A DNA stretch of 64,000 nt from Longimicrobiales bacterium (GCA_965198065.1 CBDAON010000004.1:1280001-1344000); one strand, 5' to 3'; shown: positions 44,900 to 64,000, numbered from the stretch's first letter. Made by a program: numbers and translations. The notes: generated from the sequence alone by a model not told the origin.

Positions 44900-44973
<74 letters not shown>

Positions 44974-46577: not shown

Positions 46578-46626
46578 GTGCGCATCTCCGGATCCTGGCG
46601 GCCTGCGTCCGGCCAGGTCTCCGCGT

Positions 46627-46941: not shown

Positions 46942-46950
46942 GGGGGCGGG

Positions 46951-47838: not shown

Positions 47839-47861
47839 CTCCTAGGGCTCCTTCCTTGACC

Positions 47862-48890
47862 TCAGCGGCTGGGGCTGAAGCTCCGTTTCGGGACCGGCAG
47901 CGGGAGCTCCGGCCTTGCGGCGTGCAGCGGGTCGGGAGCGCGGGTGGCGGCCACGGCCACCGGCTCCCGTTCGGCCTGTCGATCGCGGTTTCGGGCCAGC
48001 ACGAAGTCGGAGATCTTCTGTGCGTCGGCCGCGGCGCGGCGGATCTCCCTTGGGTCCTCCTCGAGCGCCGCGACCCACCCCTCGACATAAGCGGCCCCCC
48101 GGCTCGGGTCGTGGCCGACGCCCACGCGCTCGCCCGTCATCATTGCGCTGATCTCCGCGCGGAGCTCCTCCTTCGCATAGGCCGGTGAGCCGAACCCTTC
48201 GCCGATCCCTTCGATCAGCGTTGCGCGGTTCATCCGCTCGGGATGGCCGGTGCTGTGCCCCAGCTCGTGGAGCGCGGTCTGGTAGTAGTGGTTGGCCGAG
48301 GGGAACTGCACCCGCTCGGGGAGCACGATCTCGTCGTGGTTCAGGTTGTAGAACGCCCGGTCCCCCGCCACGTGACGGACGGTGACCCCGCTGTCCTCGA
48401 GGACGCGTTCGGCCTGCTGGTGCACCTTCCAGAGCGGCTCGGCCGTTGGTGTGGGCCGGGCCGGCAGCCCGTCGGCCTGCCCGGCGTTGAAGACGTTGTA
48501 CTGCCGGACGACGGGCGTGGGCAGGCGCTCGTGGCGGTAGATGCGCTTGCCTTCGTTGTCCCTGACCGGCCGCCCGCGCTCGTCGGTCACAGAGATCTTC
48601 CGGTGGTCCTGGAAGGAGAGGATGCGGGTGCCCTGCTCGCCTTTTCTGACTTGGCCGCCCCGGGCCTGGATCTGACGGTAGGTTCCCCAGCGGACGTCGG
48701 CGTAGCCGCGTGACTGTGCGACGGCCGCGAGATGCAGGCTGTTCCCTCCCGAGTAGGAGCGTCCAGTATCGACGTTGGCGGGAAGCACACGCTCGCCCGG
48801 CCCCCAGGGCTTCTGCCAGGGCGCAGTGCCCTGGCGGATCTGCTCGATGACCCGGTCGGCGAACTGGCGGTGATATTCGTCGTGTTTCAT
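47862..48890 (-). CDS. ardC: ArdC-family antirestriction protein (ssDNA-binding plus zincin-like domain)
   Basis: GTAPWQKPW, YSGGN, WGTYRQ, VRKGEQG, LHELGHSTGH, YAKEELRAE. Confidence 0.9.
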   Translation of the reverse strand: MKHDEYHRQFADRVIEQIRQGTAPWQKPWGPGERVLPANVDTGRSYSGGNSLHLAAVAQSRGYADVRWGTYRQIQARGGQVRKGEQGTRILSFQDHRKISVTDERGRPVRDNEGKRIYRHERLPTPVVRQYNVFNAGQADGLPARPTPTAEPLWKVHQQAERVLEDSGVTVRHVAGDRAFYNLNHDEIVLPERVQFPSANHYYQTALHELGHSTGHPERMNRATLIEGIGEGFGSPAYAKEELRAEISAMMTGERVGVGHDPSRGAAYVEGWVAALEEDPREIRRAAADAQKISDFVLARNRDRQAEREPVAVAATRAPDPLHAARPELPLPVPKRSFSPSR

Positions 48891-49087
48891 CGGTCTTCCT
48901 CCTCGGGGCCGTGCGGATCCTCCGAGGCGTCTCGGATCTCGTCCTCGGTGCCCACGTCCTCGGGGAAGAGGCCGTACTGCTGGGCCAGCGATGCCGGCAC
49001 CTCGAGGGCCTCGCCGCCGTCCCATGCGAGCTCGCGGTCGAAGTCGTCGAGCGTCTCGACGCGGACGATCTTCTCGTCGCTTTCCAT
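48887..49087 (-). CDS. Small acidic protein (66 aa) coupled to ardC
   Basis: AAGGAG RBS before MESDEK; stop overlaps the ardC ATG (ATGA). Confidence 0.65.
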   Translation of the reverse strand: MESDEKIVRVETLDDFDRELAWDGGEALEVPASLAQQYGLFPEDVGTEDEIRDASEDPHGPEEEDR

Positions 49088-49091
49088 GGGT

Positions 49092-50075
49092 TCACTCCTT
49101 GGCTGTTGGTTCTTCATCGTGCTTCCTCCAGACGGTGTCGGTGAGCCAGCGGTTGGCAGCCGAGTCGTAGCTCCGGACCCTGATCGCCTCCTCGACGAAG
49201 CGTCGGCCCCCTCGCCGGGTCATGTGAACGACGAGATGGATGCCGTCGACCACGCCCCTGCAGGTGACCTCCCAGGGGAGCGCCCCTCCTGCCTGCATGG
49301 CGCAACTCGCCAGGCGCGATAGCGCGGAGCGGGCATTGTTGGCGTGGACGGTGGTGAGCGATCCGCCGTGGCCGGTGTTCAGCGCCTGCAGCAGATCGGC
49401 GGCCTCGCCGCCCCTGACCTCGCCGACGACGATGTGGTCGGGCCGATGGCGGAGAGCGTGGCGGACCAGGTCGCGGATCGACACGGGCGCCTCGGAACCC
49501 GCCGCTCCGGCCTCGAAGCGCAGGCAGTTCGCGCGCTCGATCCTGAGCTCGAGCGTGTCCTCGATGGCGACGATGCGCTCCTCCTCTGGGAGCAGCTCGA
49601 TCAGTGCGTTCAAGAGCGTGGTCTTGCCCGAGCCGGTGCCTCCGGAGACCAAGATGTTGCGCCGCGAAGTGAGAGTGTCGCGGGCGACGAGGAACACCTT
49701 TTCCGGCAGGGCGCCCTGCCGCACGAGGTCTTCGGCCGAGAACGCGCGGCCCCCAAACCGGCGGATCGTCATGGCCACGTGGGGGCTCGCGGGCGGCGTG
49801 CATATGGCGACCCGCGAGCCGTCGTCGAGCCGCGCGTCGAGGATGGGGCGCGCGGCCGGATCGAGCCCGAGCGGCCGCGCGATGTGGATGGCCGCCCGGT
49901 AGAGCGCGGCGGCGGTGAGCGCCGGTGCCTCGAGGGGCTCGAGCTCTCCGCCGCGCTCGACCCAGACGTTGCCGGGGCCGTTGATCATCAGCTCGGAGAC
50001 CTCCAGGTCCTCGAGCACGCCCTCGAGGCCCGGCAGGAACGGCTTCAGGTGGCCGATTCCGCTTGCGCGCTTCAT
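49092..50075 (-). CDS. virB11: VirB11/TrbB/CpaF-family secretion ATPase
   Basis: GGTGSGKTT, AIEDTLEL, LRHRPDHIVVGEVRG, NTGHGGSLTTVHA. Confidence 0.9.
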   Translation of the reverse strand: MKRASGIGHLKPFLPGLEGVLEDLEVSELMINGPGNVWVERGGELEPLEAPALTAAALYRAAIHIARPLGLDPAARPILDARLDDGSRVAICTPPASPHVAMTIRRFGGRAFSAEDLVRQGALPEKVFLVARDTLTSRRNILVSGGTGSGKTTLLNALIELLPEEERIVAIEDTLELRIERANCLRFEAGAAGSEAPVSIRDLVRHALRHRPDHIVVGEVRGGEAADLLQALNTGHGGSLTTVHANNARSALSRLASCAMQAGGALPWEVTCRGVVDGIHLVVHMTRRGGRRFVEEAIRVRSYDSAANRWLTDTVWRKHDEEPTAKE

Positions 50076-52111
50076 ATCCGGCCCTCCTCGCGGAGCCGCC
50101 AGTAGCCCACGTCCCTCGGCAAGTAGTGGGGCTTCAGGTAGACGCGCCGGGCAGGGAGCGACTTCGTGCCGTCGTAGGGCAGACAGATCGCCTGGTAGTT
50201 GGCCAACAGCGCGAACTCGCGCGGCGTGAACACGGGCTCCCTCTGCTGCCGGAACGACTTGCTCGCGCCGATCGTGCCGCGGCCCCCTCCGGCGCGTCCC
50301 GACAGCAGCGAGAACTCCGGGCGGCCCGTGGTCTCGGTGAACGTGTAGGAGGGCTGCGTCTTCATGACGCTCCCGCACATCTCGGACGCGATCCGGGCCG
50401 ACGACTCGTCGCTCAAGGACAGGAAGATCCGGGTGCGGAGCGTCTGGACCAGGGTGCGCCAGGCCTCCGTGCCCGACAGCACGGAGCGGAGCGAGGAGAT
50501 CGACTGCGTGGCCACGATCGGGATGCAGCGGCACTGCCGCGTCAGCGCGAACGCCTTCTCGTCTCCGGACGGATCGTCCTGGCCCACGGTGGCGAACGCC
50601 TGGTACTCGTCGCAGATGAACACTGCGGGCCGGAGGTAGCGGCCGGGCTGGCGGGCGGCCTCGGCAGGCCGCCGGAGCAACGCCTGTATCCAGGCATTCT
50701 TCAGCAGCACGCCGATAGCGCGTCCGAGCGCCGGGTTGGCGCCCGCGGGCATGTTGAGGGCGAGGACCCGGCCCTCTTCGATCAGCTCGGCGAGCGGTGG
50801 CAGCCGGCGGCGGAGCCCCGGCATGGGCCGGACGGCCTCGGGGTCTTCGTCCGGCGCAGCACTATACATATGTATGGATTCATCCGGCTCCGGAGGAGGC
50901 GGACAGAACATGCTCGCGACCTGCGGCTGGTCGAAGAGGGACAGGAAGACCGAGATGCCCTCGACGATGGAGGTGCGGAGCTTGGGGTCGAGCGCCATCC
51001 AGTCGTTCAGGTACCAGCGCTCGATCGCCTCCACCTGCTCCCTGAGCTCGCTGCCCGCGCCGCCCTCGCTCTCCTCGGTCTCGAACGGGATCTCGAGCTC
51101 GGCGAGCCGATCGCTCAACCCGGGATCGAGCTGGCAGGTGGCCTTATCGGTGCCGGCCACCGGCTCCCAGGCCCAGTCCTCGAGAGACTCCTTGTGCGTG
51201 AACAGATCGCTGCCGGCGACGGTGACCCGGACCGGGCAGAGGCGGGCGACCAGATCCCGGGCCGCGCCGATCTTTCGCGCGAACAGCTCCGCGTCGATCG
51301 TGCAGCGGTAGATGTCCTGGAGCGTGACCCAGCCCCCCGGCAAGAGCCGGTGCAGTTCGATGATCCAGCGCACGAGGTTCGTGTAGGCTTGCTGCCAGAA
51401 CGGTTCGCGACTCTTGCCGAAGAGCTGGTTGATCAGGGAGGCGACGCTGTAGGCGAGCGAATAGGTGTCGAGCAGCGGATCGTCGAGTGGGTTCCACTGC
51501 CAGGCGCCGCCGAGGCCGATCTCCAGGTAGTCGTCCCCGCGCCCGGCGCCTTCGAGGATCCGGCGCACGCTATGACAGAAGTCGCCCTTGACCTCTAGCA
51601 CCAGGGCGCTGGCCCGTCGTGCGGGCCGGTCGGCCTGCCAGGAGAGGAGCTGCTGGGCGAACGGATACATGCAGGCTGAGGTCTTGCCGGAGCCGACCGC
51701 CCCGACGATGAGCACGCCCGTATACAGCCCCGTCTCGGGGATCACGAGCCAGGAGGGCCGCTCGCTCTCGCGCGGGACGACGGGATGGTGGAGCTCGCCG
51801 ATCACGAGCGATGGTGTCTCGTCCTCGGGCGAGGCGGGCCAGGGTGGCAACGTGCCCCGGCGCCCTCCTCCCGCTCGTGGCTGGAGCCAGACTCTCCAGA
51901 CCGAGAGGCCGAGGCTGCCGAAGAGCACCACGGCGACGGCGGGCGCCACGTAGTACCAGACGCGGATCACCGTGTGGAAGCCCGGATCGTGGTAGGCGAT
52001 CAAGTCCAGCACGGGGTTGCCGCCGGGGCCGGGGAACGGCGCCCGGAACGCGTGAGCGATGGCGGCCGCCGAAGCGAGGCCCACGAGTACGAGCGTCGCG
52101 GGCTTCAGCAT
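50072..52111 (-). CDS. virD4: Type IV coupling protein (VirD4/TraD-like)
   Basis: Two N-terminal TMs, Walker A GAVGSGKT, LEVKGDF, Walker B FICDEYQ, IVATQS; start uncertain. Confidence 0.85.
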   Translation of the reverse strand: MLKPATLVLVGLASAAAIAHAFRAPFPGPGGNPVLDLIAYHDPGFHTVIRVWYYVAPAVAVVLFGSLGLSVWRVWLQPRAGGGRRGTLPPWPASPEDETPSLVIGELHHPVVPRESERPSWLVIPETGLYTGVLIVGAVGSGKTSACMYPFAQQLLSWQADRPARRASALVLEVKGDFCHSVRRILEGAGRGDDYLEIGLGGAWQWNPLDDPLLDTYSLAYSVASLINQLFGKSREPFWQQAYTNLVRWIIELHRLLPGGWVTLQDIYRCTIDAELFARKIGAARDLVARLCPVRVTVAGSDLFTHKESLEDWAWEPVAGTDKATCQLDPGLSDRLAELEIPFETEESEGGAGSELREQVEAIERWYLNDWMALDPKLRTSIVEGISVFLSLFDQPQVASMFCPPPPEPDESIHMYSAAPDEDPEAVRPMPGLRRRLPPLAELIEEGRVLALNMPAGANPALGRAIGVLLKNAWIQALLRRPAEAARQPGRYLRPAVFICDEYQAFATVGQDDPSGDEKAFALTRQCRCIPIVATQSISSLRSVLSGTEAWRTLVQTLRTRIFLSLSDESSARIASEMCGSVMKTQPSYTFTETTGRPEFSLLSGRAGGGRGTIGASKSFRQQREPVFTPREFALLANYQAICLPYDGTKSLPARRVYLKPHYLPRDVGYWRLREEGRI

Positions 52112-52195
52112 CGCGCTGGCACCCTTCCCGGAGGGATACATGGCCGGGAGCGACCCCGCCGGGGGCAGAGCGTGTGAAAACACGCACGCCCCCAC

Positions 52196-52387
52196 GCCAT
52201 CACTAGGGCGTCCGCGGGCGGGGTCGCTCCCATATCCGCCTCATCGGCCCGTCTGGCCACGTCCGGCCGGGCAGCTGAGGCGTAAGACGCAGTGGCGTCG
52301 GCGCATATGCGGTGGGCCGCGTGTGAATCAGGGCCGGGCCATTCTGTGAATCGACCCCCCGCGTCGTTTTCACGTCCTAGTGGTGGC
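52196..52387. repeat. Intergenic inverted repeats, candidate ICE oriT or promoter region
   Basis: GCCATCACTAGGGCGT (52196-52211) versus ACGTCCTAGTGGTGGC (52372-52387), 14/16 complementary; TGTGAATC occurs twice. Confidence 0.4.
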
Positions 52388-52403
52388 ATGACACGCAGGC
52401 CGG

Positions 52404-53338
52404 TCATCGGAAGTGCGCCCCGGAGAGGCGCACCGTTTGCCAGGTGCGGCCGGTGTGGATCGGCCCTCGGCCGCGCTGCCGACGTGCCTGCTTCGTCAGC
52501 GTGACGCTGCGTTTCAGGGCGGCTTGCAGGCCTCCGAACTCGTCGAGGATCTGGATCGCACCTTGAAGGATGGCGCGCTCGATGCGGTCGATCTCTTCAC
52601 GGATCCCGGCGTCCGGTTCGGCCGGGCCGGAGGCTTCTGCCCAGCCGCCGAGTATCGCCCGGGCCCGAGCAAACTCCTCGAGGGTGCGGACGACGGCCAC
52701 GACCTCGACGGATCGGCCGCGCTCGCTGAGCGCTTTCCAAAGGCCGCGGTGCGCTTCGCCCCAGGAGCGGAGCGCGGTCGTGGTATCGTGTCCGGGATCG
52801 ACGTAGACGAACACGGCGCGCTCGGCTTCGAGCGCGACCGGCAGCTTGACTGGGAAGTAACGCCGCGTGTTACCGGCCGCTCCGCGGTAGAGCCGCGAGG
52901 GCAGGATCCGGCGTTCGATGCCGAGCGCCTCGAATGCGCCGACCTTCTCGGACTCGGTCGGCAGCCACGGCAAGTCGGGATGCTCGAGCACGTAGTCGAG
53001 CGAGAGCAGGCGACGCATGAGCACCGCCTCGGAAGCGGCCCGGCGGTGGCGGATGTCCTCGGCGCCGAGCGCTCGGTAGATGCGCCGGCTGAAAATCCTG
53101 CACACGCGGCCGATGCCATTGATGCCGGGCACGGTCTCTTCGGTGGCCGCGCCTTGCGCGATCAGGGCGTGGACGCCGCGCCGCACCTGTTCGGGATGCG
53201 CATCGAGGAACCGGGACCACTGGGCGCGGATGAACACGCCGCTGTGGAGACAAGCCAGCGCGATCCATTCGGGGCCTGGCGTCCCGTCCAACCGAACGGC
53301 TCAAGGGCCGCTTCCCGTCCCCGCAGATGGGCGATCAC
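52404..53338 (-). CDS. ICE hypothetical protein (frameshift near 53272)
   Basis: GTGA overlap with the virB8 stop; MIAHLRGREAALEPFGWTGRQA continues as EWIALACLHSGVF after correcting a C-run. Confidence 0.7.
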
Positions 53339-53804
53339 CTGGGCTGCTCCGTGACCAGGGCACGGTCGGCCTGGAGGTAGGTGATGAGGATGCCCATCGG
53401 GTTGTAGACGACGAACTCGGAGGGAATGACGGTGAGGAACGTGAACCGGAGCGTGATCGACCACCGCTCCCTCAGGGTCTCCTGCCCCTGCCGGAGGTGG
53501 ACTAGGTCGAAGTCGGCGGTCGCGCCGTGGGGTGCCTCCGGTGCGGGGTGGATGCGGAGCACGGCCTGCTCGACCTGGAGCTCGGTGTCGGCGGTGCCGG
53601 CCGCCATGGCGGCGACCTCGGCGCCGTCCCTCGTGAACGCGGCGTTCGCCAGCTCGGTCGAGAGGAAGCGTAGGCTCCGGGTCCAGTGCTCCTCGACCGT
53701 CGCCTGGCGCCTGGAGTAGAAGTCGGCGATGAACCGGTTCAGGAAATACTTGGTCGTGGGATCGAGCGGATCCGCCTGCGCCGTTGCGGCCTCGTAGGCC
53801 ACGG
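53335..53804 (-). pseudogene. virB8: virB8/TrbF C-terminal (periplasmic) segment, separated by the nested element
   Basis: KYFLNRFIADFYS...YNPMGILIT VirB8 signature; begins within the 19-bp repeat (VAYEAA). Confidence 0.85.
53786..53804. repeat. att core direct repeat, left copy
   Basis: GCGGCCTCGTAGGCCACGG, identical to 58777-58795. Confidence 0.95.
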
Positions 53805-53913
53805 ACATCCAGAATCTACCGGTGTCCAGTGCCATCCAGATAGATTGCTAAATTACTGTAGTTAAAGGGCTTTATCTACCTTATCCGGCATCTTGCGCGG
53901 CTCGCTACATCCC

Positions 53914-53942
53914 TTGATATCCATCTCCATCCCCTATATTAT
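53914..53942 (+). promoter_or_regulatory. Integrase promoter (probably leaderless) overlapping arm-type motifs
   Basis: TTGATA-N17-TATTAT, 6 nt before ATG 53949. Confidence 0.6.
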
Positions 53943-53948
53943 GAGGGT

Positions 53949-55181
53949 ATGAATGCCGTAGAGAACACCGCCGATCCGCCCCGGAAGACCAAGCCCAAGG
54001 GCCGTCACCCCGACAAAGCCCTGTCCGCCGCCTTCGTGCGCACGGCCCCGCCGGGCAGATATTGCGACGGCAATGGGCTCTACCTCTTCGTTCAGCCGAG
54101 CGGAGCCCGGAGCTGGATTCAACGGCTGGTCATCCGCGGCCGTCGCCGTGACTGCGGACTCGGCAGCGTCGCGCTGGTCTCGCTCGCCGAGGCTCGAGAG
54201 AAGGCGCGGGCCAACCGCAAGCTGGCCCGCGAGGGCGGCGACCCGCTGGCGGAGAAGCGCCGCGCCCAAGGCGTGCCCAGCTTCGCCGAAGCCGCTGCGC
54301 GCGTGGTGCAGCAGAAGCAGGCCGGTTGGCGCAATCCGAAGCATTGCCGCGACTGGATGTCGAGCCTGAGGCGATTCGCCTTCGCGCGCATCGGCGAGAT
54401 ACCGGTGTCGCAGGTGACGAGCGCCGACGTGCTGGAGATCCTTGCTCCGATCTGGCACACGAAGGCGACCACCGCCCGGAAGTTGCGCCAGCGCATCCGC
54501 ACGGTGTTGGAGTGGGCCGTGGCGATGGAGTTCAGGACCGACAACCCGTGCGACCGCCTCGGGCCGGTGCTCGGAGCGCAAGACGCCGTGGTGCAACACA
54601 TGCGGGCCTTGCCGCATCGCGAGGTGGCATCGGCCCTCGAGACGGTGCGGGCATCGGAGAGGATGCCCGTCGTCAAGCTGGTGTTCGAGTTCCTGGTGCT
54701 GACGGCGGCGAGGTGGGGCGAGGTACGGGGGGCCGAATGGGCCGAGATCGATCGGAGGGAGGGTGTGTGGACGGTTCCAGCCACACGGATGAAGGCGAAG
54801 CGCGAGCACCGGGTGCCGCTGTGCCGCCGCGCCATGGAGATCCTCGAGGAGGCGCGGACGCTCGACGACGGCAGTCCGCTGGTGTTCACCGACGGGGCAG
54901 GCAGGCAGCTCAACGGCAAGCGGCTGCGGCGGCTGCTCCGAAAGCACGGGATCTCGGCCGTGCCGCACGGCTTCCGGTCCAGCTTCAGGGACTGGGCGGC
55001 CGAGGAAACGGACCATCCGCGCGAGGTGATCGAGGCGGCGCTGGCGCACGTGGTCCAGAACAAGGTCGAGGCCGCGTATCGGCGCACGGACCTGTTCGAG
55101 CGCCGCCGCCTGCTGATGAACGATTGGGCCGGGTATCTGGCCCGCGAGCGTCGAGACCCGGAGGCCGGTCCCAGCCGCTGA
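53949..55181 (+). CDS. P4-like tyrosine integrase with arm-binding domain
   Basis: DGNGLYLFVQPSGARSW, VSLAEARE, LTAARWGEV, RMKAKREHRVPL, PHGFRSSFRDW, LAH, AAYRR; reading frame intact. Confidence 0.95.
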   Translation: MNAVENTADPPRKTKPKGRHPDKALSAAFVRTAPPGRYCDGNGLYLFVQPSGARSWIQRLVIRGRRRDCGLGSVALVSLAEAREKARANRKLAREGGDPLAEKRRAQGVPSFAEAAARVVQQKQAGWRNPKHCRDWMSSLRRFAFARIGEIPVSQVTSADVLEILAPIWHTKATTARKLRQRIRTVLEWAVAMEFRTDNPCDRLGPVLGAQDAVVQHMRALPHREVASALETVRASERMPVVKLVFEFLVLTAARWGEVRGAEWAEIDRREGVWTVPATRMKAKREHRVPLCRRAMEILEEARTLDDGSPLVFTDGAGRQLNGKRLRRLLRKHGISAVPHGFRSSFRDWAAEETDHPREVIEAALAHVVQNKVEAAYRRTDLFERRRLLMNDWAGYLARERRDPEAGPSR

Positions 55182-55219
55182 GGCGCGAGCCGTTGAGGCC
55201 CGATCCGAGGCCGATCCAC

Positions 55220-55303
55220 GGCTGGCTCATGACCCCTTAAGGGTCAAGAGCCAGCCTACCCTTTGTACCCACAAAGGGGCTGGCGAGGGGCTCCGCCCCT
55301 TCG
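55220..55303 (-). other. oriT-like module 1
   Basis: Minus strand: AGGGGCGGAGCCCCT hairpin, GCCAG, inverted repeat CCCTTTGT-gggt-ACAAAGGG, TAGG-CTGGCTCT, then a further inverted repeat. Confidence 0.5.
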
Positions 55304-55551
55304 ATCCCGAAGGATGCCCGCGCTCTGCTGCGGTGTGCCGTGCTCGCCCAGCGTGCGAGCCGTGTCCGGTCGCGCCCGATGGAGCCTGGCCAGGCGGCTC
55401 CGCAGCGACCGCCTCAGCGTCACCGGCGCAGCTCGCGCCCACGCTCGGCGGACACCGCTCGAGGGGTTGGCCGAAGGGCCGGAGTCCCGGGGAAGGCGCC
55501 TGGCCCCGGGAGGGAAGGAGTGGCCCCCCGGTTCCGATGCCACGGGCTAAT

Positions 55552-56172
55552 TCAACTGAACGTCGCGGCCCCCGAGAACGACTCGTTGATCTGAGCGCCG
55601 CACGCCTGCCCGGCGACTGTGATGCTGAACCCGAGCAACGCGTCCGGATCATCCACCGACTCCAAATCCACATCCATCCGGCATGACCCACTCCGACCGT
55701 CGCCCGTGGCCCACTGAACCGTCCCGGCCACGGTGCCGCTGATCTCGAACATGAACTCTGTCGAGATTGACAGCTCGATGCTCATCTCCACCTCGGGCGC
55801 GCCGTCCACGGTAAAGGTGATCCCGGTCCCCGTGTGCCTCTCCATGCAATCCGCGTGAACAAGGGTCGCCGACACGCCCACGCCGGCGCCGTCGTCGCCC
55901 GGTCCTAGGGAAGGCGTGACCTGTGCGTCCACTGCCACCGTTCCACCTATCGTGCATTGGCCCGTGAACTGTAGGCTGGCGCCGCCAGGGGTCACGATCT
56001 CGTTGATTTCGTCGCCGCTCAGCAGCTGGAGGCCGGGGTTCATCGTTACCTCGAGGAGCGCGAGAGCCTCCGCCGGGGTCAGCGAGTCTTCGGGCTCCGT
56101 CGAGCTGCCACCGCCGCAAGAAGCCACGGCTAGTCCGACACTCAGAATCACCCCTGCTCGAATTCGGCGCAT
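55552..56172 (-). CDS. Lipoprotein of unknown function (cargo)
   Basis: MRRIRAGVILSVGLAVASC lipobox; acidic, beta-rich body with Cys residues. Confidence 0.8.
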   Translation of the reverse strand: MRRIRAGVILSVGLAVASCGGGSSTEPEDSLTPAEALALLEVTMNPGLQLLSGDEINEIVTPGGASLQFTGQCTIGGTVAVDAQVTPSLGPGDDGAGVGVSATLVHADCMERHTGTGITFTVDGAPEVEMSIELSISTEFMFEISGTVAGTVQWATGDGRSGSCRMDVDLESVDDPDALLGFSITVAGQACGAQINESFSGAATFS

Positions 56173-56529
56173 AAGTCACGTCCTCTGTTGTGGCAATTTC
56201 TGATTCGGGAGCGCCAACTCGCGAATCGATCCCGGCCGGTCGCCTGAGCGGGCGTGAGCGGGATCACCCGTTCCGCAACCACCGGCGAGCCCTTCTCTTC
56301 GGCACGCCCCGACCGTGTCCGGATGTGCCGTGATAACACTCCCGGAGCCTAGGAGGTCCTGTGTGGGCGCCGCCGGGTTGAGCCGGAGTGAGATCCCTGA
56401 CTCGGGCTCGGGTCGGTCACTTTGTGACGAGCGAGTACCGGCGTTCAGTAAGGCCAACAGCACGGCAGGCGGGCGAGCGAGCCGGGCGGCCGCTCGCTGC
56501 CCCGGCAGCGGCCCGGTAAGTTGGGGGTT

Positions 56530-56616
56530 CAAGGGGGGCGCAGCGTCCCCTTGGCCAGACCGCAATGTTTGACATTGCGTGGGCTGGCTTAAGCACCTTA
56601 GTGTCCGTCTAAGGTG
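56530..56616 (+). other. oriT-like module 2 with ColE1/MOBP5-type nic motif CTGGCTTA
   Basis: CAAGGGG..CCCCTTG hairpin, GCCAG, inverted repeat CGCAATGT-ttg-ACATTGCG, TGGG-CTGGCTTA (56584-56591), inverted repeat CACCTTAG-N7-CTAAGGTG. Confidence 0.6.
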
Positions 56617-56912
56617 GCGCGACGGCGGTCGGAAACGCACCCGCCGGGGGGGTGTTGGCCCCCGGCTTGCGCGTCCCCTCTGAGTTGCTGGTGAAGCTCT
56701 CGTGGGCTCACCTCCGGAGCCGGTCACGGTGCGGGGGGGTGAAGCGATCCGGCGCGCAAGCCCGCCAGGTTCGCACGTGCGGGGATCGGATCGGCGGGGC
56801 ACACGGGGCCTCCGGGGAGCTTCACCGCCGGGGGGATCGCATCGCAAGCGCTGGCGCTAGGCAGGGGCGGTCTGAAGGAAGTAGTGGTCTGATCTTCCTG
56901 TAACGAAGACGC

Positions 56913-57272
56913 TTAGGCTGGGTCTCCTTTCTTGATACGAATTCCTGCGCAGAAATAAGCGATGATCGCCCACGCCGGTATGACCAAGTACGGAAACGGG
57001 TCGGTTGCGATCTCGAAGGCAATGTCATTTCGCAGAATAATCAACAGCACTATAGACACCAGAGCCAAGGCTTCTACGGACCTCCGAAGCATCGTCTCCT
57101 TTCTCAAGCCTAGGAGTCTCCTCTTTCGAGACCGGTAGGCGAGAGCGCCAAGAATCATAATTGGTCCGGCAATGAATCCTGCCGTGTCGTCCCCGGCCGC
57201 CAACCGGGCGGGAGCTCCGAGGAAGTAGATGGCGCCAAACACAATGGCCAGAGTGGATCCTAGGAACCGCAT
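56913..57272 (-). CDS. Small four-TM membrane protein (cargo, lower GC)
   Basis: Four hydrophobic segments with a basic loop RSRKRR; start uncertain. Confidence 0.7.
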   Translation of the reverse strand: MRFLGSTLAIVFGAIYFLGAPARLAAGDDTAGFIAGPIMILGALAYRSRKRRLLGLRKETMLRRSVEALALVSIVLLIILRNDIAFEIATDPFPYLVIPAWAIIAYFCAGIRIKKGDPA

Positions 57273-57720
57273 GTCTGGCACGAACCGGTTCGCTTTCACG
57301 ACAAACGCCTCCTCACCCGTAGGATGTAGCGAGAGGCCAATCTTAGGGGATCGCATCCGGGAGCGAGCCCGCCGGGGCGGATCGGATCGCAAGCCTGCCA
57401 GGCGCGCACATGGCTGCCTCCGGACCTACTGGGAAAGGTGCACCGGGTGGTGCCGTTAGTCCGACGGTCCAAGAGAAACCGGTGTGTAGAATGCGACCAT
57501 GCGGCACGTGTGGCATACGAGAGGAATTACGGGGAACAACTCATCTTCCTCGGACTGCCCCTGGAGGAACCATAGCCTACTGCCGGGTTCCAGAGTTTCT
57601 TGGTTCCGGCAATGTAGGCAGATGATGCCATGCTGGCGCAGGTGAGCTGATTACTCTCCTCAGCTCTTCACTGGTCAGCTTATCGGACCGGGTGTACTCG
57701 ATTCTGTCCGGATCCATGCG

Positions 57721-58311
57721 TCAGCCGCAGGCTTCCTCATTCACGCGGAGGTAGTCGAGGATGAACCCGTCCAGGTACTCGGACACCGTTTGCATGATGA
57801 AGCTCGCGCTCCCGCCGTGTGTGCCGATGGTGTCCCTTTCCCATGTGGTGGCCACCCCCGATTCTCCGCTTCTGGGGTCTTGGACGGACTTAAAGAGCTC
57901 TAGGCTGATATCGAACGCCGGGCTGAACGTCCTGATATTCAGCTCCAGCATCTGGCCGCCGCCCGAATCGTACAGCCTAGCGGCCCGCAACCGGCTCTCC
58001 ACCATCGTCCAAACGCGCTCCTTGGTGAGCCCCATTTCCTCCGCCTCGTCGCCTGAGACTAGACCGACGGCATACACCGGCGCGCACTCGGTGAATAGCC
58101 CGAAGCGGTCAACGTACGTCCCGTCCAAAATCTCCGCGAACACGTTGCACGGCGGCAGTGCCTGGTCCGGGTCGGCGGACACCGGCGGAGCGCCTGACGG
58201 GTCCTGCTCCGGGGCGGGCTCCGCCCTGTCGAAGTCGTCAACCTGGCACGCGAGCGGCACGGCGAGCGCGAGGCCCGCCAGAGCGAGCTGGCAGACACGG
58301 TGGGCGCTCAC
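57721..58311 (-). CDS. Lipoprotein of unknown function (cargo)
   Basis: LAVPLAC lipobox, Pro-rich linker, globular C-terminal domain. Confidence 0.75.
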   Translation of the reverse strand: MSAHRVCQLALAGLALAVPLACQVDDFDRAEPAPEQDPSGAPPVSADPDQALPPCNVFAEILDGTYVDRFGLFTECAPVYAVGLVSGDEAEEMGLTKERVWTMVESRLRAARLYDSGGGQMLELNIRTFSPAFDISLELFKSVQDPRSGESGVATTWERDTIGTHGGSASFIMQTVSEYLDGFILDYLRVNEEACG

Positions 58312-58525
58312 GGGGCCGGGCCGGGCTCGGGGGGGCGCAGCCCGGAGCCGCGCCAGCCGTCGATCAGCCCCTCGATCCGCGCCACGCGTTCCCGCAGGTC
58401 CGCGACGTCGCGGCGGATGGCGACCGCGAGCACGATGCCCACGCCGTCCGCTCGATGGCGGCGAGGGAGCCCGCGCGGAGTCGGATCAAGACTTGTTCGG
58501 GGTACAGCGTTCGCCGCCGGGACAT
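58308..58525 (-). pseudogene. Fused remnants: RHH-like N-terminus plus a TM/coiled-coil tail
   Basis: MSRRRTLYPEQVLIRLRAGSLAAIER in one frame; GIVLAVAIRRDVADLRERVARIEGLIDG in another, whose stop overlaps the lipoprotein GTG. Confidence 0.4.
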
Positions 58526-58760
58526 TCGGCGGGGCTCTTGTCCGCCTCCAAGCGTGCGCCAAGGGACGGTTGGTCCGGTCATTGCTCGTCCTCCGTTGCG
58601 TCGGCGCGGACCTTCAATCCCCACTGTCTAACCGACGGGTTCTGCAAGGTTCCCTTCCGCGAACGTCCACTGGGGTCGAACGGATTCCCGTACGGAAAGA
58701 GGGATCTAATGAGGGGATCGGAGAGAGTTGGTCAGCAGTAAGTTATTATATATCAGTATC

Positions 58761-58994
58761 TTATAATCTTTCTGTCGCGGCCTCGTAGGCCACGGCCTCG
58801 GCGCGGCCGACCTCGTCGACCCGCACCACGATGGGCCTGGGCGGCTCGACGGTCGCGATGCGAAGGAGCAGGACGGCGAGCGCGAGGCATCCCCCTGCTA
58901 GGATGATTGCAAGAGTCCGGAGCTTTCGGTTCGCCTCGACGGTCTCGCCCCAGATCTCCGCGTACTCGCGGCCGGCATCGTGTTCTCGGTTCAT
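58761..58994 (-). pseudogene. virB8: virB8/TrbF N-terminal segment (cytoplasmic tail plus TM), truncated by the nested element
   Basis: AAGGAG RBS; MNREHDAGREYAEIWG...TM...PIVVRVDEVGRAEAVAYEAAT, then ERL* inside the element. Confidence 0.88.
58777..58795. repeat. att core direct repeat, right copy
   Basis: GCGGCCTCGTAGGCCACGG, identical to 53786-53804. Confidence 0.95.
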
Positions 58995-59005
58995 GGATGT
59001 CTCCT

Positions 59006-60016
59006 TCAGCCTCCGGGGACTGGGGGGCGGGGCGGGTTCGCGGCAGCCGTGAGGCGCCCGCCGCCGCGCACCACGAGCGCCATCATGCCCGACCCGACGG
59101 ACCCGGATCCGGAGACGAGCATCGCGGCGAGCTCGCCCACCTTCATGCCGGCCATCAGGCCGGAGACGACGAGCGGGAGGAGAACGACGACCCACAGCCC
59201 CAGCTCGGCGGGGTCGGAGGAGCCGGTGCCCATCAGGGCACCGGTATAGGTGGTGACGTAGCCCATGCCCACGCCCATGAACACACGGAGGATGGCTCCC
59301 GCCACGACGCCGTAGAGCGTGTAGACCATGAGCGTGCGGAACCATCCCCAGAACAGGAACGCGAGCGGCTCGAACAGCAGCCAGGGGATGAACACGGGGC
59401 CCAAGAGGATCACGATCGCGAGCGCCACCTGCGCCCAGATCACCTGCGCGTAGGTCAGGCAGAAGAGCGCGACTAGGCCGAGCACGAGCGGCACGCCCAT
59501 CATCAGCGCGACGAGGGCGGAGAAGAACACGCTCACGCCCTCGGTCACGAGGGTCATCAGGCTCCCGCCCGACCATGCCGCGCCGAGCCGTGCGGCGAAC
59601 GCCTGCACCAGCGCGGTCATCTCCGTGTAGCCGACCGACACGACGTCGGAGATGAACAGGTTCTGGAGCCAAATCCCTCCGGCCGCCACCGTGGCCGGGA
59701 ACGTGAACCCCACGCCCGGGATCGGGACGCTGTAGTAGTGGAGTAGCGTCCGGGGGATCGCGATCCCGAGGACGACCCGCACGAGCGCCCAAGGCTCGAG
59801 CGTGCCGCTGTAGGCGATCTTGAGGCCGGTCCAGGCGACGACGATCGCCGCGAGACCGCCCCAGAGTTGGTGGCCGAGCGTCAGCACGTCGGGCGCGGCG
59901 CCGCCGATCACCGTATCGAGCACGACGTCCAGGAACCCCTTGAAGTCCTGGAGCTGATCCGCGGGGATCTGGGCCGGGACGTTCGGATCGATCGACTGAG
60001 GGGGAGGAAGTTGCAT
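59006..60016 (-). CDS. virB6: VirB6/TrbL-like polytopic membrane protein
   Basis: Multiple TMs with LLGPVFIPWLLFEPLAFLFWGW; position in the T4SS operon. Confidence 0.85.
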   Translation of the reverse strand: MQLPPPQSIDPNVPAQIPADQLQDFKGFLDVVLDTVIGGAAPDVLTLGHQLWGGLAAIVVAWTGLKIAYSGTLEPWALVRVVLGIAIPRTLLHYYSVPIPGVGFTFPATVAAGGIWLQNLFISDVVSVGYTEMTALVQAFAARLGAAWSGGSLMTLVTEGVSVFFSALVALMMGVPLVLGLVALFCLTYAQVIWAQVALAIVILLGPVFIPWLLFEPLAFLFWGWFRTLMVYTLYGVVAGAILRVFMGVGMGYVTTYTGALMGTGSSDPAELGLWVVVLLPLVVSGLMAGMKVGELAAMLVSGSGSVGSGMMALVVRGGGRLTAAANPPRPPVPGG

Positions 60017-60035
60017 GACGGTCGCTCCCCGGGGC

Positions 60036-60947
60036 CTAGGCTTGGCCGCCCATGTAGAACGACGGGACCTTGAAGAGGAGCCCCTCCCGGAGCCGGTCGC
60101 GATTCTGGAGCGCGGCCGCCCGCATCTGCTCGTACATCGCGTTCGTACGGAGGCGTGCGTCCCTCCACTCGGCGAGCCGCTCGAGCCGGTCGATCTCGGC
60201 CTGCTGCATCTGGTTCGCCTGCTCGACGGCCTGATAGGCGAGCACCTGCGCCACGGCGGCGTTGATCCGGCCCTGCGTCAGCGCGGCAGCCACTTGCGCC
60301 TGCTGGAGCGCCGTGTTGGACAGATTGCCGTTCGCGGTCAGGTCGTCGAACGAGCCCTGTGCGCTCTCGACGGTCGAGGCGAGCGAGGCCGCGGCGTCCA
60401 TCATCGCGTAGTCGAGCACGCGCTGGCGGTCGGCGGCCTCACGGGCCTGGCGGTAGTCCTCAACCGCGCGCGACGACGCCTCGGCCGGGCGGTTGCGGAA
60501 CAGCTCGAGGATGTCCGCCTCGCTCACCTGGTCGGCCACCCCTTGGGCGCTCCGCCAGACGTCGGTGAACGAGTCGCCGCTCCCCATGTCACGCACCGCG
60601 TCGACCAGCTCGCCGGCTGCGCCGGTGAAGTCGGAACCCCAGTCGAGGCCGTCGCCGACGAGGCCGATGGACCCGGCCGCCAGCTCCGCGAACGGCTCGA
60701 TCAGCCCATCCACCTCGCCCCGCGCAACCTCCTTCATGTAGTCGAGCTGCTCCTCGAGCTCGGTGAGCTGGCGGGTCATCGTCCGCATCTGGCGGATCTG
60801 GTTCGCGATCTGGGTCGCCTGGTTCACGATCATCTGGGCACGCTGAATCGCGCCGCTGATGGCGCCCAAGAAGGCTTCGGCCGGCGCCGCGCTGGTCAGG
60901 ATCAGGATCGGGACCAGGAGGACGGCGGTAAGGGTTCGGTGACGCAT
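60036..60947 (-). CDS. TrbJ/VirB5-like secreted protein
   Basis: Signal peptide APAEA, Q-rich helical NQATQIANQIRQM; upstream of virB6. Confidence 0.65.
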   Translation of the reverse strand: MRHRTLTAVLLVPILILTSAAPAEAFLGAISGAIQRAQMIVNQATQIANQIRQMRTMTRQLTELEEQLDYMKEVARGEVDGLIEPFAELAAGSIGLVGDGLDWGSDFTGAAGELVDAVRDMGSGDSFTDVWRSAQGVADQVSEADILELFRNRPAEASSRAVEDYRQAREAADRQRVLDYAMMDAAASLASTVESAQGSFDDLTANGNLSNTALQQAQVAAALTQGRINAAVAQVLAYQAVEQANQMQQAEIDRLERLAEWRDARLRTNAMYEQMRAAALQNRDRLREGLLFKVPSFYMGGQA

Positions 60948-60964
60948 TAGAGGCTCCTTTCGTC

Positions 60965-62251
60965 TCATTGCCGTGTCCCGGGCCTGGGGACCAGGACATC
61001 GGAGGTGAACCAGATGCGCAGGCGGTGGCCCGCGCGGATCGTGATCGTGGGAAGCCGGTTCAGGAACCGGTCGAGGACCGAGGTGGCGCTCTGGCCGAGG
61101 CCCTGGCCGATGCCAGCCCTCAGGCCGAACGGCGAACCACCGGCCAGCGTGAGTCCGCTCAGGACGCCCACGGCTCCGGCGGCCGCGAACGTGCTGAAGT
61201 AGTGGCGATCGACCTCGTCCCGAAGCGCACCCTCGCCCGCCTGGTTCAGGCCGGTGAACTCGAGGCCGATCCAGCTCCCGCCGGGCAGGAGGAGCCGGTG
61301 GAAGCCGACGGCCAGCCGGCTCTGGTCCTGGTCCTGAACGGCCTGGGCCGTGCCGACGACGCGCGTGCCGCGCGGGATCAGAACCCGTTGGCGGTCGGCC
61401 GAATAGAACGGCACCGAGACCATGGCGAGCACCGGTCCGGGGAAATCGCCCGTGAGCTGCGTGAGAAGCACCGCCTCGAGGAACGAGCCCTCGTGGATCC
61501 GCTCCCAGCCCGGCGGGTCTTCGGGCCGGACGCTCCGGCCGAGCTGAATGGGGCTCGGCGTCCGACGGGAGGCTTGCTGCGGCATCGCGCTTGCCGGCTC
61601 CGGGGCCGGTGCAGCCAACCCCAGAGCTCCGAGCAGCCGCTCTTCGGCTGCCAATTCGTCCTCAAGCGTCGCGACGGACTGCTCGAAGGAGGCGAGCGCC
61701 GCTTGGACCGTGTTCTCGAGGAACGCCACATCCGCGTCGGCCGCATCGCCGGTGCGCGGGCCGCCAGCCTCGGACGACTCCAGAGTCGCGTTTGGATCGC
61801 GGTACGACTGGGCCACGGGAAGGGTGCGGAGCGAGCGTGTTCTTCGCTCCAGCTCCTCCAGCCGAAGCGCCTCCCGAAGCTCCGACTCCACCGCTCCGAT
61901 GCCGAGGGCAGCGGTGTTCGGCGCCTGGGACTCGGCCTGGATCCGGGCCATCTCCTCGGCGGCAGCGGCCTGCCGGCGCTCGAGCTCGGCGCGCGCCCGT
62001 GCGGCGGCCTCCAGAGTCTGCCGCTCGGCCTCTTGCCGAATGCGCGCCTGGAGCGACCTCCCCATCCCGTCGTCGACAGCCTGCGCCTCGGGCAGGGCTA
62101 CGAGAGTGTCGGCTTCCTGGGGACCCGTCATCGCCCAGGAGAAAAGCAGTCCACCGACGAGCACGGCGATCAACACCACGCCCGCCTTCGTCACGATGCC
62201 GCCCGGCAGCGCGCCTTCCGGGGGCCGGACCCACTGCTTCCAGCGGCTCAT
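60965..62251 (-). CDS. virB10: VirB10/TrbI-like core complex protein
   Basis: TM, coiled coil, EGSFLEAVL, LIPRGTRVVG, PTITIRAGHRLRIWFTSD. Confidence 0.9.
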   Translation of the reverse strand: MSRWKQWVRPPEGALPGGIVTKAGVVLIAVLVGGLLFSWAMTGPQEADTLVALPEAQAVDDGMGRSLQARIRQEAERQTLEAAARARAELERRQAAAAEEMARIQAESQAPNTAALGIGAVESELREALRLEELERRTRSLRTLPVAQSYRDPNATLESSEAGGPRTGDAADADVAFLENTVQAALASFEQSVATLEDELAAEERLLGALGLAAPAPEPASAMPQQASRRTPSPIQLGRSVRPEDPPGWERIHEGSFLEAVLLTQLTGDFPGPVLAMVSVPFYSADRQRVLIPRGTRVVGTAQAVQDQDQSRLAVGFHRLLLPGGSWIGLEFTGLNQAGEGALRDEVDRHYFSTFAAAGAVGVLSGLTLAGGSPFGLRAGIGQGLGQSATSVLDRFLNRLPTITIRAGHRLRIWFTSDVLVPRPGTRQ

Positions 62252-63110
62252 CGGAGCGCTTCCGCGGCGTGAACCGCCAGGCAGCCCGCTTGTCGCCGAT
62301 CTGCAGCCACCCGTCGGCCAGTACGTGGCGGGCGACGTACAGCCCGTCATCCGTCAGATCGTAGGCCACGAGCGCCGGTTCCCCGTCCCGGAGCTCATAG
62401 AGCGCGGGCGACTCCTGTGCGTGGGACCTCAGATAGGTGAACTGCCCGTCGTGCCACATCGCCTCGACCAGGAACGGTCGGTCGGCCGCGTCCCCGTCGA
62501 GCCGGTACTCGAACGCGAGACGCTCCGGATAGGCGGCACGGAACTCCTCGATCGCCGACTCAGCCTGAGTCCGGGCCTCCAGGATGCTGGCCTCGGCCGC
62601 CTCCCGGGCACTCCGCGCGGCCTCGGCCGCCTCGGCGGCCATCTGTTGGTAGGCCGCGACCTCGCTCCGCGCGACGAACGCGGGACGGCCGCTGCCTCCA
62701 GAGAGCCGCGCCGCCTCTGCTCCGGACTCTACGCGAACGACCAGATGAGGCGGCCCGTCGCTGTGCTCGGCCACCAGGAACGAGTAGATCCGCCCCGACT
62801 CGCAGACGAGCGCGATGTTCGTCGCCGCGTCCGGCCGCAGGGGTTTCAGGAACGCGACGTTCGCGGCGCCCGCCAGATGCCAGTACTCCGAGTCGCCGAC
62901 CACGAAATCCAGGATGTTCTCATCGGCGGGGAGCACGATCACCGTCGTGTGACGGACCTGCGTCCGCAGCCGGTGGATGCGGTCCTCGCCCTCCTCCGGG
63001 ACCGGCACCCGGAGGAACGCTTGGTCGTCCTCCTGCTGGGCGGTAGCCCCGGCGGGGAGGGCAGCCAAGAGAAGGGCGGTTAGAACGAGGGGTGCCATTG
63101 GTGGTCGCAT
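62248..63110 (-). CDS. virB9: VirB9/TrbG-like protein (apparent 1-nt frameshift near 62262 removes the natural stop)
   Basis: Signal peptide, TTVIVLPADE, GDSEYW, FLKP, WHDGQFTY, PALYE; adding one base gives PREALR* overlapping the virB10 ATG. Confidence 0.85.
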
Positions 63111-63116
63111 GGCGTG

Positions 63117-64000
63117 TCAGCTCCTTGCGTTGGGGGTGGGGGTGGGGGTGGGATCGTCTCGGCTCGCGAGCACCTCGAGCGCCCGGCTGAGTCCGTGACG
63201 CTCGACGGCCCGGGCCCGCTCCTCGGCGTCCAATGCGGACGAGGTGTAGAGCCAGTAGCTCTCCGGATCGACCTCGAGCCGGAGCACCGCCGCCCCGTCC
63301 GGGCGGCGCAGGTAGAGCTCGCGTTTGGGGATCAGGCCCCGGACCTGGGCCAGCTCCGACTCGTTCAGCCGGAACAGCGCTCCGACCTCGTCGGGGAGCT
63401 CCGGGTTCGCGAGGAACAGCTTGGTCGGGATCGACTCGAGGAGCGCCGCCGCGCCCGGCGTGGCCGTGACGTCCACCGCGGACTGGGTGGCGAGGATCAG
63501 CGCGGCGTTCTTCTTCCGCCACGTCTTCGCCGCCTCGGCCAGGTAGCTAAGCACCGCCGGGTCCTGCAGGTAGCGCCAGGCTTCGTCCACCACCATCAGC
63601 TTCAGCCGCGTCGCCTCGGACGGATCCTCCACCTCGAGCCGCATCCGCTCGAGCAGATAGGAGAGTGCCGCGTCGCAGAGATCCGGATGCTCGACCGCAC
63701 CCGCCAGATCGATCACCTGCCAGTCGGCGAACTCGAGGTCCGGCGCCCCGCCCGCCGGGTTGTCGAAGTAGGCGCCCCACGCGCCGCCTTGGGTCCAGCG
63801 GCTCCATGCCGGCCACGTCGCGGACGGAAGCGAGCTTGCCAAGACGCTCAGCGTGCGCCGCTCCGGCTCGAACGCGTAGAGGTCCTCGATCCGCGCCCGG
63901 ATCTCGCTCGTATCCGCCCCGCTCGCTTCCCAACCGCCGAGCTTCAGGAGCCGGAGCACCCAGCCGGTCAGGAACTGGAACGTCCGCGTGCCCGCCGGCA
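63117..64000 (-). CDS. virB4: VirB4-family ATPase, C-terminal part (5' end outside the window)
   Basis: Walker B LMVVDEAW, KTWRKKNA, LATQS, PTKLFLANP. Confidence 0.88.
   Translation of the reverse strand, partial: PAGTRTFQFLTGWVLRLLKLGGWEASGADTSEIRARIEDLYAFEPERRTLSVLASSLPSATWPAWSRWTQGGAWGAYFDNPAGGAPDLEFADWQVIDLAGAVEHPDLCDAALSYLLERMRLEVEDPSEATRLKLMVVDEAWRYLQDPAVLSYLAEAAKTWRKKNAALILATQSAVDVTATPGAAALLESIPTKLFLANPELPDEVGALFRLNESELAQVRGLIPKRELYLRRPDGAAVLRLEVDPESYWLYTSSALDAEERARAVERHGLSRALEVLASRDDPTPTPTPNARS

Follow-up and report, generated by a model that had tools for sequence, protein, structure and literature searches.

A P4-type integrative island in virB8 of a multicopy integrative and conjugative element, probably a hitch-hiker and not a gate

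What is an integrative island doing inside virB8 of the integrative and conjugative element (ICE) that carries it, and must the ICE wait for the island to leave? The question arises from a 64,000-nucleotide stretch of DNA from a Longimicrobiales bacterium (GCA_965198065.1 CBDAON010000004.1:1280001-1344000; the whole stretch is hereafter called the window), which lies on contig C4 of the genome (G000; C3 is another of its contigs). In the window, virB8 of one ICE copy, ICE1, is split by a 4,991-bp island, hereafter the passenger. The initial annotation of this DNA took the passenger for an ICE satellite that gates its helper, such that the ICE conjugates only after excision and the passenger is always circular when a channel is built. 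Our analysis upholds the satellite part of this claim, in that the passenger is site-specific, embedded in the ICE and not a one-off insertion, but not the gating of the helper. Specifically, a P4-type island has occupied a fixed 19-bp virB8 site of a multicopy ICE, and we consider it probable that it is a relaxase-less, oriT-bearing hitch-hiker that uses the ICE as landing pad and vehicle.

The passenger is bounded by an exact 19-bp direct repeat (window positions 53786-53804 and 58777-58795, spacing 4,991 bp), the only 19-mer present twice on the plus strand of the window. Removal of one repeat copy together with the interval leaves a virB8 open reading frame (ORF) of 669 nt that encodes 222 amino acids (aa) with no internal stop, just as first annotated; the claims that both virB8 halves and the island integrase are free of stops, and that the split parts the membrane anchor from the periplasmic domain, were likewise borne out, the hydrophobic anchor (about aa 27-49) lying in the 5′ part and the cut falling at codons 67-73. 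Searched separately, the halves match Pfam VirB8 weakly (E values 2.6e-3 and 1.6e-4); an intact sister copy matches NCBIfam TrbF (E 9.8e-8). As it stands, the 5′ ORF (58761-58994, 77 aa) runs four codons into the island before reaching a stop. The integrase contains Arm-DNA-bind_3, Phage_int_M and Phage_integrase domains, and its sequence shows the catalytic motifs R, K, HxxR, H and Y; its match to NCBIfam PRK09692 lies below that family's cut-off. Of the P4/CP4-57-type features, the island shows the three integrase domains at one end, a flanking direct repeat and an empty site, whereas searches gave no alpA gene of its own. Its parts, with the flanking halves of virB8, are as follows.

58777..58994, minus strand: virB8 5′ part, encoding the cytoplasmic N-terminus with the membrane anchor; its identity to aa 1-74 of the intact sister copies is 90-93%
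58777..58795, no strand: att core at the integrase-distal end, 19 bp
58656..58776, no strand: AT-rich distal island end, conserved at sister-island ends (matches at eight other places on C4 and one on C3, E<1e-5); likely arm-type sites, judging from this conservation
58308..58624, minus strand: two short overlapping ORFs of 84 and 86 aa without AlpA similarity or Pfam match, likely gene remnants
57721..58311, minus strand: cargo, 196-aa predicted lipoprotein-like protein, no family above cut-off, paralog at C4:1353531
56913..57392, minus strand: cargo, 159-aa hydrophobic protein, no family above cut-off
55552..56172, minus strand: cargo, 206-aa predicted lipoprotein-like protein, paralogs of which adjoin sister islands
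53949..55181, plus strand: intact P4/CP4-57-type tyrosine integrase of 410 aa, oriented opposite to the vir operon
53914..53942, plus strand: sigma-70-like promoter match (10/12), ending 6 nt before the integrase start; a consensus match only, with one found against 0.7 expected
53786..53804, no strand: att core at the integrase-proximal end, 19 bp
53335..53804, minus strand: virB8 3′ part (periplasmic domain), open to its natural stop, 90-94% identical to intact sister copies

Two in-frame ATGs, at 53835 and 53808, were considered as starts of an anchor-less product of the 3′ part. They were rejected as a by-product, because the short repeat in which they lie is common to every island end, neither has a clear ribosome site, and the search for an outward promoter was negative.

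That virB8 was invaded, rather than built in two pieces, follows from the same genome, which contains two uninterrupted virB8 genes (C4:461372-460707 and C4:2861891-2861226; 90-94% protein identity), each with the 19-mer once; the insertion is therefore proven, and VirB8 is available in trans. One of the two sister ICEs concerned, at C4 ~452-469 kb, has virB2, B3, B4, B5, B6, B8, B9, B10, B11 and virD4 all unbroken; its cro-alpA gene is frameshifted and in three pieces.

Is this virB8 site the real target of the integrase? Both island ends match virB8 over 19/19 nt, and among 54 distinct full-length virB8 genes the exact 19-mer is present in 29 and its last 13 nt in 50. The site is also occupied in other samples. 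In public sequencing runs (4 of 23 listed runs examined for the junction, 5 of 23 in all), two runs from other studies yielded diverged junction contigs: one of 89 nt in run X4 (53750-53838, four differences, flanking the core by 36 and 34 nt) and one of 68 nt in run X3 (53750-53817, two differences, only 13 nt past the core). The core match, the 19-mer in virB8 genes and these contigs together indicate that the site has been used by more than one copy. Error-free contigs of X1 (record 8) and X2 (record 9), two runs of one sample, possibly the source, also contain the integrase-side junction, although they extend just 11 nt to the left of the core; in both runs, contigs from unique cargo sequence are error-free matches. 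In run X6 no contig across the virB8 junction was seen. A one-off, off-target insertion by a promiscuous integrase, or an assembly artefact, is largely refuted by these observations and in our view highly improbable. It is true that sister subclades do insert off-target, as did an integrase of a type normally found at 'VTVT' repeats that landed in virB9 (L259), and that the passenger integrase forms a lone branch on our trees; the observed off-target cases, however, share only short cores, and junction contigs come from runs of three studies. As a separate observation, an island-free virB8 copy in another genome (L229, G278:C3) carries an internal tandem duplication spanning the VAYEAA region.

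Relatives of the passenger also occupy fixed ICE sites. Of 401 genomes of the order, 63 have the virB8 of this ICE family; all 63 belong to one family, many have several copies, and the copies are mostly full length, with up to seven scored virB8 matches in a related genome. Our survey covered 40 ICE loci in 14 other genomes, selected as the top full-length virB8 matches, together with 15 loci that surround partial matches and 17 extensions. Occupied sites were virB4 codons 203-206 (three times in this genome, once each in G273, G278 and G324, and three times in G358; five genomes) and codons 681-684 (G273); virB5 codon 212 (twice in G261, and in G363 and G204; three genomes); a second virB8 site at codons 86-89 (with an integrase in G204, G273 and G116, plus a 5′ half in this genome); virB11 codon 240 (G278, G358); virD4 codons 179, 235-242, 247-255 and 501-503; codon 160 of orf295, an ICE gene next to virB8; ardC codon 251; and the intergenic region between orf295 and virD4 (window 52140-52400; occupied in G036, G324, G358 and G369), which is targeted by the integrase subclade closest to the passenger's. 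In the loci surveyed, virB2, B3, B6, B10 and the candidate relaxase gene were free of P4-type sites. Because ardC and the intergenic region are used too, the pull appears to be towards the ICE as a conserved multicopy target and not towards essential genes only. Each site has its own integrase subclade (FastTree, 141 rows), and the integrases of the two virB8 sites are only 43% alike; on a 44-row IQ-TREE quick tree of hand-picked rows, the label 'ICE site' needs five changes, at least three of them forced by starred branches. At virD4 codons 501-503, one subclade is found in both orientations (L265, L284, L075). In the island at virB4 codon 681 (L221/L222, G273), a region 97% identical over 131 nt to the second of the passenger's oriT-like motifs (described below) accompanies an integrase only 64% identical to the passenger's, and modules have therefore been swapped between islands with different targets.

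Does the ICE nevertheless have to wait for the passenger? Genes that are restored by excision include sigK (the skin element), comK (a prophage) and nifD (the nifD element). Here virB8 can be restored precisely in silico, yet it is redundant in this genome. Regulated gene integrity is a concept also cited in PMC10111431, and an obligate gate would mean that the channel is built only after the island leaves virB8, that the island is always circular at transfer and that both partners are selected to keep the arrangement. The frame-restoring core, the intact integrase and the intact halves are consistent with such a gate, as is a conserved ICE-borne AlpA that could be its trigger. The gate would also hold in single-ICE cells. 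The other nested islands of this genome offer similar support, since in silico excision gives long open frames in both virB4 and virD4: ICE1 virB4 is split just beyond the window by a 4,302-bp island (C4:1344959-1349261; 11-bp core) that encodes an intact P4-type integrase of 411 aa and, as cargo, an outer-membrane beta-barrel protein, and that also contains a mobC-like remnant, a motif resembling an oriT and a copy of the hairpin region found upstream of virD4 in the ICE; and a third ICE carries the same virB4 island, at the C4 end/start, together with a 14,376-bp island in virD4 (C4:2844909-2859285, L185; 20-bp core), which is an integrative and mobilizable element (IME) with mobC, a relaxase gene, an Eco57I-like restriction-modification gene, DUF6602 and an insertion sequence (IS). 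A TAG flagged in the virB4-island integrase proved to be the natural stop of the 411-aa protein and not a defect. The virB4 islands of the two ICEs are not independent insertions, a reading we rejected because their near-identity reaches ~7 kb into the flanks; this tract suggests recombination between ICE copies.

The same data make an obligate gate distinctly unlikely. The initial annotation had itself named a second intact virB8 within the ICE as telling against it, and in spirit this holds, since intact copies exist in two sister ICEs of the same genome, one of which has the uninterrupted virB2-virB11/virD4 set described above; multiple virB8 matches are found in related genomes too. ICE1 would need a second excision, from virB4, and ardC and intergenic sites are used in addition to channel genes. 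In our own tally of insertions in virB4, B5, B8, B11 and D4 (stretches viewed), only 10 of 26 have both halves in direct order: 3/10 at virB4-203, 1/1 at virB4-681, 0/3 in virB5, 1/1 at the passenger's virB8 site, 0/4 at the second virB8 site, 2/2 in virB11, 1/1 at virD4-235, 0/2 at virD4-255 and 2/2 at virD4-501. An assembly break or an island of more than 20 kb may also lie behind a 'no' in this tally; for two of the 26 (L274, L294) the only basis is a tblastn break at the same codon; and three virD4-179 cases and two virB5 pieces whose other side lay outside the view were left out. In Streptococcus suis, moreover, PMC7168690 reports that excision of nested IMEs was not detected. With two intact virB8 copies in the cell, the island is probably not an on/off gate for it; in a single-ICE cell the island would act as a gate, and in this genome it would be at most a brake on one copy, though insertions of this kind often break the ICE in the long run.

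Alternatively, the passenger might be a frozen parasite, that is, a recent site-specific insertion that has lost mobC, relaxase and alpA, has no useful excision, and has knocked out one redundant ICE copy that is now decaying. We regard this as unlikely. The lack of a recombination directionality factor (RDF) or mob gene in the island and the gene remnants at 58308-58624 would fit it, as would the 16 of 26 insertions without a half in order, the second virB8 site that is unrestorable in 4/4 genomes and a genome rich in IS copies and broken ICE pieces. ICE1 virB5, furthermore, has the highest dN/dS of 27 (0.26) and seven private residues. However, the integrase is intact, as are the two cores and the two oriT motifs; all ICE1 genes tested other than the split ones are full length and stop-free; and runs of other studies contain diverged copies at this site. 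Nor do the virB8 halves look decayed: their pairwise dN/dS values against 30 intact virB8 genes, which mostly reflect the earlier history of virB8 and not the time since insertion, are 0.13 and 0.14 (intact ranges 0.11-0.26 and 0.09-0.26), and the halves have zero and two private residues, so that at this level of comparison no relaxed selection is visible. The lack of an S24 repressor beside ICE1 was considered as a sign of decay and rejected, since this repressor is seen in only 6 of 27 ICE loci.

How, then, might the passenger move? Genome-wide matches placed no mobC or relaxase gene in the island and its cargo includes no relaxase family; it thus has its own integration module without a relaxase gene, unlike a canonical IME. 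It does contain two candidate origins of transfer, with a presumed function in nicking.

56523..56591, plus strand: candidate oriT 2, comprising a G-rich box, an 8-bp stem (56561-56579) and then CTGGCTTA (56584-56591)
55247..55308, minus strand: candidate oriT 1, of the same architecture, with a nic-like octamer that differs in its last two letters

The octamer CTGGCTTA is the nic-containing octamer of the ColE1 oriT (PMC5703827). Candidate oriT 2 is 85% identical over 95 nt to DNA just before the mobC and Pfam Relaxase gene in the virD4 island, and blastn matches no more than 700 nt from mobC or a relaxase gene number 9/37 for copy 2 and 15/69 for copy 1 (self and duplicate matches included). 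The 8-bp stem covaries, being maintained with many different sequences among 54 pattern matches, three of which are probably spurious. We infer from these similarities that the motifs may be oriTs served in trans by relaxases of sister islands. By blastn, the passenger has no match to the ICE's own intergenic hairpin region that would make it a mimic of an ICE oriT; two 20-nt look-alikes of that region are present at 56815 and 57359. The virB4 island, unlike the passenger, carries a copy of the hairpin. Since the passenger's motif matches sister IMEs and not the ICE, three tiers are implied: an ICE channel, a sister-IME relaxase and an oriT-only passenger.

A candidate for the trigger of excision lies at the head of the vir operon. 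The gene ahead of virB2 in ICE1 encodes a 163-aa fusion of a Cro-like protein with a C-terminal AlpA domain (Pfam AlpA, E 1.3e-20).

G000:C4:1350497-1350988 (L184:7497-7988), minus strand: Cro-AlpA gene heading the vir operon

Of the 27 ICE loci that extend far enough, 26 have a homologue no more than 800 nt upstream of virB2, and AlpA and Hef are excisionases for this type of integrase (PMC9376610). No AlpA match was obtained in any of this genome's three nested islands, and the passenger gives no tblastn match with the ICE Cro-AlpA, which leaves room for an unrelated small RDF; other AlpA genes are present in this genome. We hypothesize that the AlpA domain of the ICE might evict the passenger. 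A broader version, tentative and on balance somewhat doubtful, is that of a self-timing guild of satellites: once conjugation is switched on, the ICE AlpA would evict all nested P4-type islands (virB4, virB5, virB8, virB11, virD4) together, repairing the channel, and the oriT-bearing circles would leave through the newly built channel by means of a third element's relaxase. Were this so, AlpA-less islands would be fully slaved to their helper, and the ICE AlpA could equally be a counter-measure of the ICE against being disabled.

In the hitch-hiker reading that we favour, the ICE would serve as a conserved, multicopy, travelling landing pad. Excision would need a directionality factor in trans, for which the AlpA domain of the ICE's Cro-AlpA is the best candidate and which could couple excision to ICE induction; precise excision would restore virB8, although the sister ICEs likely make it dispensable for the cell. 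The circle might then be nicked at the ColE1-like candidate oriT by a MOBP-type relaxase of sister islands (the virD4 island has both MobC and a relaxase), exported through VirD4 and the channel of the ICE, and inserted again into the virB8 of a recipient's ICE copy.

Several observations weigh against this reading. The initial annotation had proposed a search for close integrase homologues at the same virB8 codons, and here only the diverged junction contigs answered: neither 61 relatives nor the genome, metagenome and viral collections gave an integrase closer than ~81%, and a search of 400 other genomes of the phylum did not turn up the junction. The site specificity of this very integrase consequently rests on the core and two short contigs, and the contigs from X3 and X4 could be descendants of one old composite of ICE and island. 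Its dN/dS check on the halves gave values inside the intact range, and the same is expected from a recent insertion. A look for attB and attP, as it had also suggested, revealed no excision product: neither an attP circle junction nor a loose end nor an own-allele empty site was seen among the joints listed from two read sets, a weak test on contigs of depth ~3-6, which would be compatible with low-frequency excision. The other end of the host ICE, with its second att end, was searched for and not located. Two nested relatives elsewhere (L383, L389) carry their own AlpA, so that dependence on the ICE's AlpA is not general, and read-through of the vir operon cannot drive the integrase, which is antisense to that operon and has its own promoter-like site. 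As to the wider searches, an island-end DNA search of 313 family genomes gave no full-length match among the best two candidates scored per genome, and three 3-mismatch matches to the junction pattern in the 400 genomes were rejected, none being near ICE or integrase genes. The best IMG/VR relative of the integrase is 44% identical, and the closest named relatives come from metagenome-assembled genomes (MAGs) of Longimicrobiales and Ca. Palauibacter and from Acidobacteriota MAGs. These relatives make a Gemmatimonadota host likely; such taxa occur in sponges.

Nesting of islands in ICE genes has precedents. Coluzzi et al. (PMC5357655) report that traG, maff2 and snf2 of Tn5252-family ICEs harbour 12 IMEs with serine integrases and proposed, in 2017, that induction of conjugation excises ICE-nested IMEs, so that the module is restored and the IMEs can travel along; the model is repeated by Guedon et al. 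(PMC5704250), who describe the traG cases as all untested. Our island resembles the IMEs nested in Tn5252-superfamily ICEs (Tn6104, IME_Sco1050_traG_site1/2) in its site-specific, disruptive insertion in a conserved ICE gene, and the streptococcal and clostridial nested IMEs in that there are several per ICE and several sites per gene, decayed ICEs are frequent carriers and the excision-on-induction model put forward is the same. Unlike the streptococcal elements, which have serine integrases, reside in Firmicutes and bring their own relaxase, it belongs with P4-type tyrosine integrases in a diderm phylum and has no relaxase; the targets here also include the channel genes virB4, virB5, virB8 and virB11 besides virD4, at more than 10 sites. 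The island works like the streptococcal ICE-nested IMEs and is not a member of their type, because it has a tyrosine integrase and no relaxase. Tyrosine-integrase IMEs, as treated in PMC5357655, PMC5704250 and PMC7168690, target tRNA or housekeeping gene ends or an ICE oriT; IMEs in ICE oriTs are also the subject of PMC7563843.

Among other mobile islands, a phage counterpart is the HE-PICI (helper-embedded PICI) family (11capE; PMC10111431), in which an integrase clade has repeatedly gained sites in essential helper genes, without replacement sequence and with subclades that respect their sites, and for which excision restoring the helper gene has been shown. HE-PICI elements have a lambdoid prophage as helper, a late gene as target, one integrase clade, co-orientation with the target, AlpA and a primase; our island, by contrast, has an ICE as helper, is anti-oriented and lacks AlpA and replication genes, and ICE-targeting is scattered over several integrase lineages. 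The terms 'conjugat', 'ICE' and 'virB' have zero occurrences in the main text of PMC10111431. In combining an integrase with a candidate oriT, lacking relaxase and channel, and probably hitching, the island is like the iOriTs and the mobilizable genomic islands of SXT/R391 (bioRxiv 10.64898/2026.01.13.699239; PMC5704250), for which helper factors can time excision. The oriT of iOriTs resembles that of the helper ICE, whereas the motif here is ColE1/MOBP-like and matches sister IMEs; the iOriT abstract makes no mention of integration inside the helper's transfer genes. With the P4/CP4-57 (IntA, AlpA) islands GIsul2 and HPI (PMC9376610) the island shares the integrase domain architecture and an AlpA-type excisionase family nearby, but those islands sit at tRNA/tmRNA or guaA ends without disruption and have their own alpA. 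A literature search confined largely to open-access journals yielded no report of tyrosine-integrase islands within channel genes, nor one of this ICE family; TIGER/Islander tables or the supplements of IME papers may already list such sites. The idea of an excision gate is thus already in print, as a hypothesis for streptococcal traG IMEs, and what is new here is the tyrosine integrases, the channel genes and the many sites. The habit of nesting in ICE genes has arisen again, with tyrosine integrases, in a different phylum and at more than 10 fixed sites that include channel subunits. The locus offers a compact test case for excision on induction (a 5-kb island, a 19-bp core, an intact integrase, a named candidate trigger and empty sites in the same genome), and it points to the three-tier dependence described above and to a pool of integrases whose protein-gene targets change rapidly.

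The rest of the window's ICE1 region and its surroundings comprise the following.

59006..64000, minus strand: upstream transfer genes of the host ICE, namely the virB4 3′ part, virB9, virB10, virB5/trbJ and virB6
45031..53338, minus strand: downstream host ICE genes, namely an unknown ORF of 295-311 aa (orf295), the intergenic hairpin region, virD4, virB11, ardC, a candidate relaxase gene, a helix-turn-helix gene and the ICE integrase
44900..44973, plus strand: tRNA-Ile, which adjoins the ICE integrase and is the likely integration site of the host ICE

The candidate relaxase (46951-47838) is Replic_Relax-like by Atlas feature likeness only (score 0.90). The conserved ICE gene orf295 (52404-53338, ~300 aa) has no family match, its nearest Atlas clusters being unnamed Acidobacteriota proteins, and fragments of it recur within nested islands. 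The hairpin-rich region between orf295 and virD4 (52140-52400) is conserved among ICE copies and is a candidate ICE oriT. Right ends of the ICE type (window 45031-46194; C4:2098545; C4:119673) adjoin different tRNA genes, Ile in the window and Ala and Pro elsewhere, and share only a very short motif. This genome has 16 matches to the passenger integrase at E<=1e-80, the passenger's own included. Contig C4 is probably circular, because its last and first bases overlap by ~18 nt, and the third ICE spans this joint.

Integrase subclades related to the passenger's were also found at motifs outside the ICE. In Vicinamibacterales loci (L067-L100), a large subclade occupies the stop codon of genes from a multicopy family whose products end in '...FVFALP' and which we take to be PQQ-dependent dehydrogenase-like. 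Others integrate into 'VTVT'-encoding repeats of likely surface proteins (L047-L066, L247-L260), and still others lie at IS-like genes, presumably IS21 istB and IS3-type transposase genes, and at the 3′ end of other P4-type integrase genes (L037, L039; L002, L005, L026; G000:C4:380407, 1364000).

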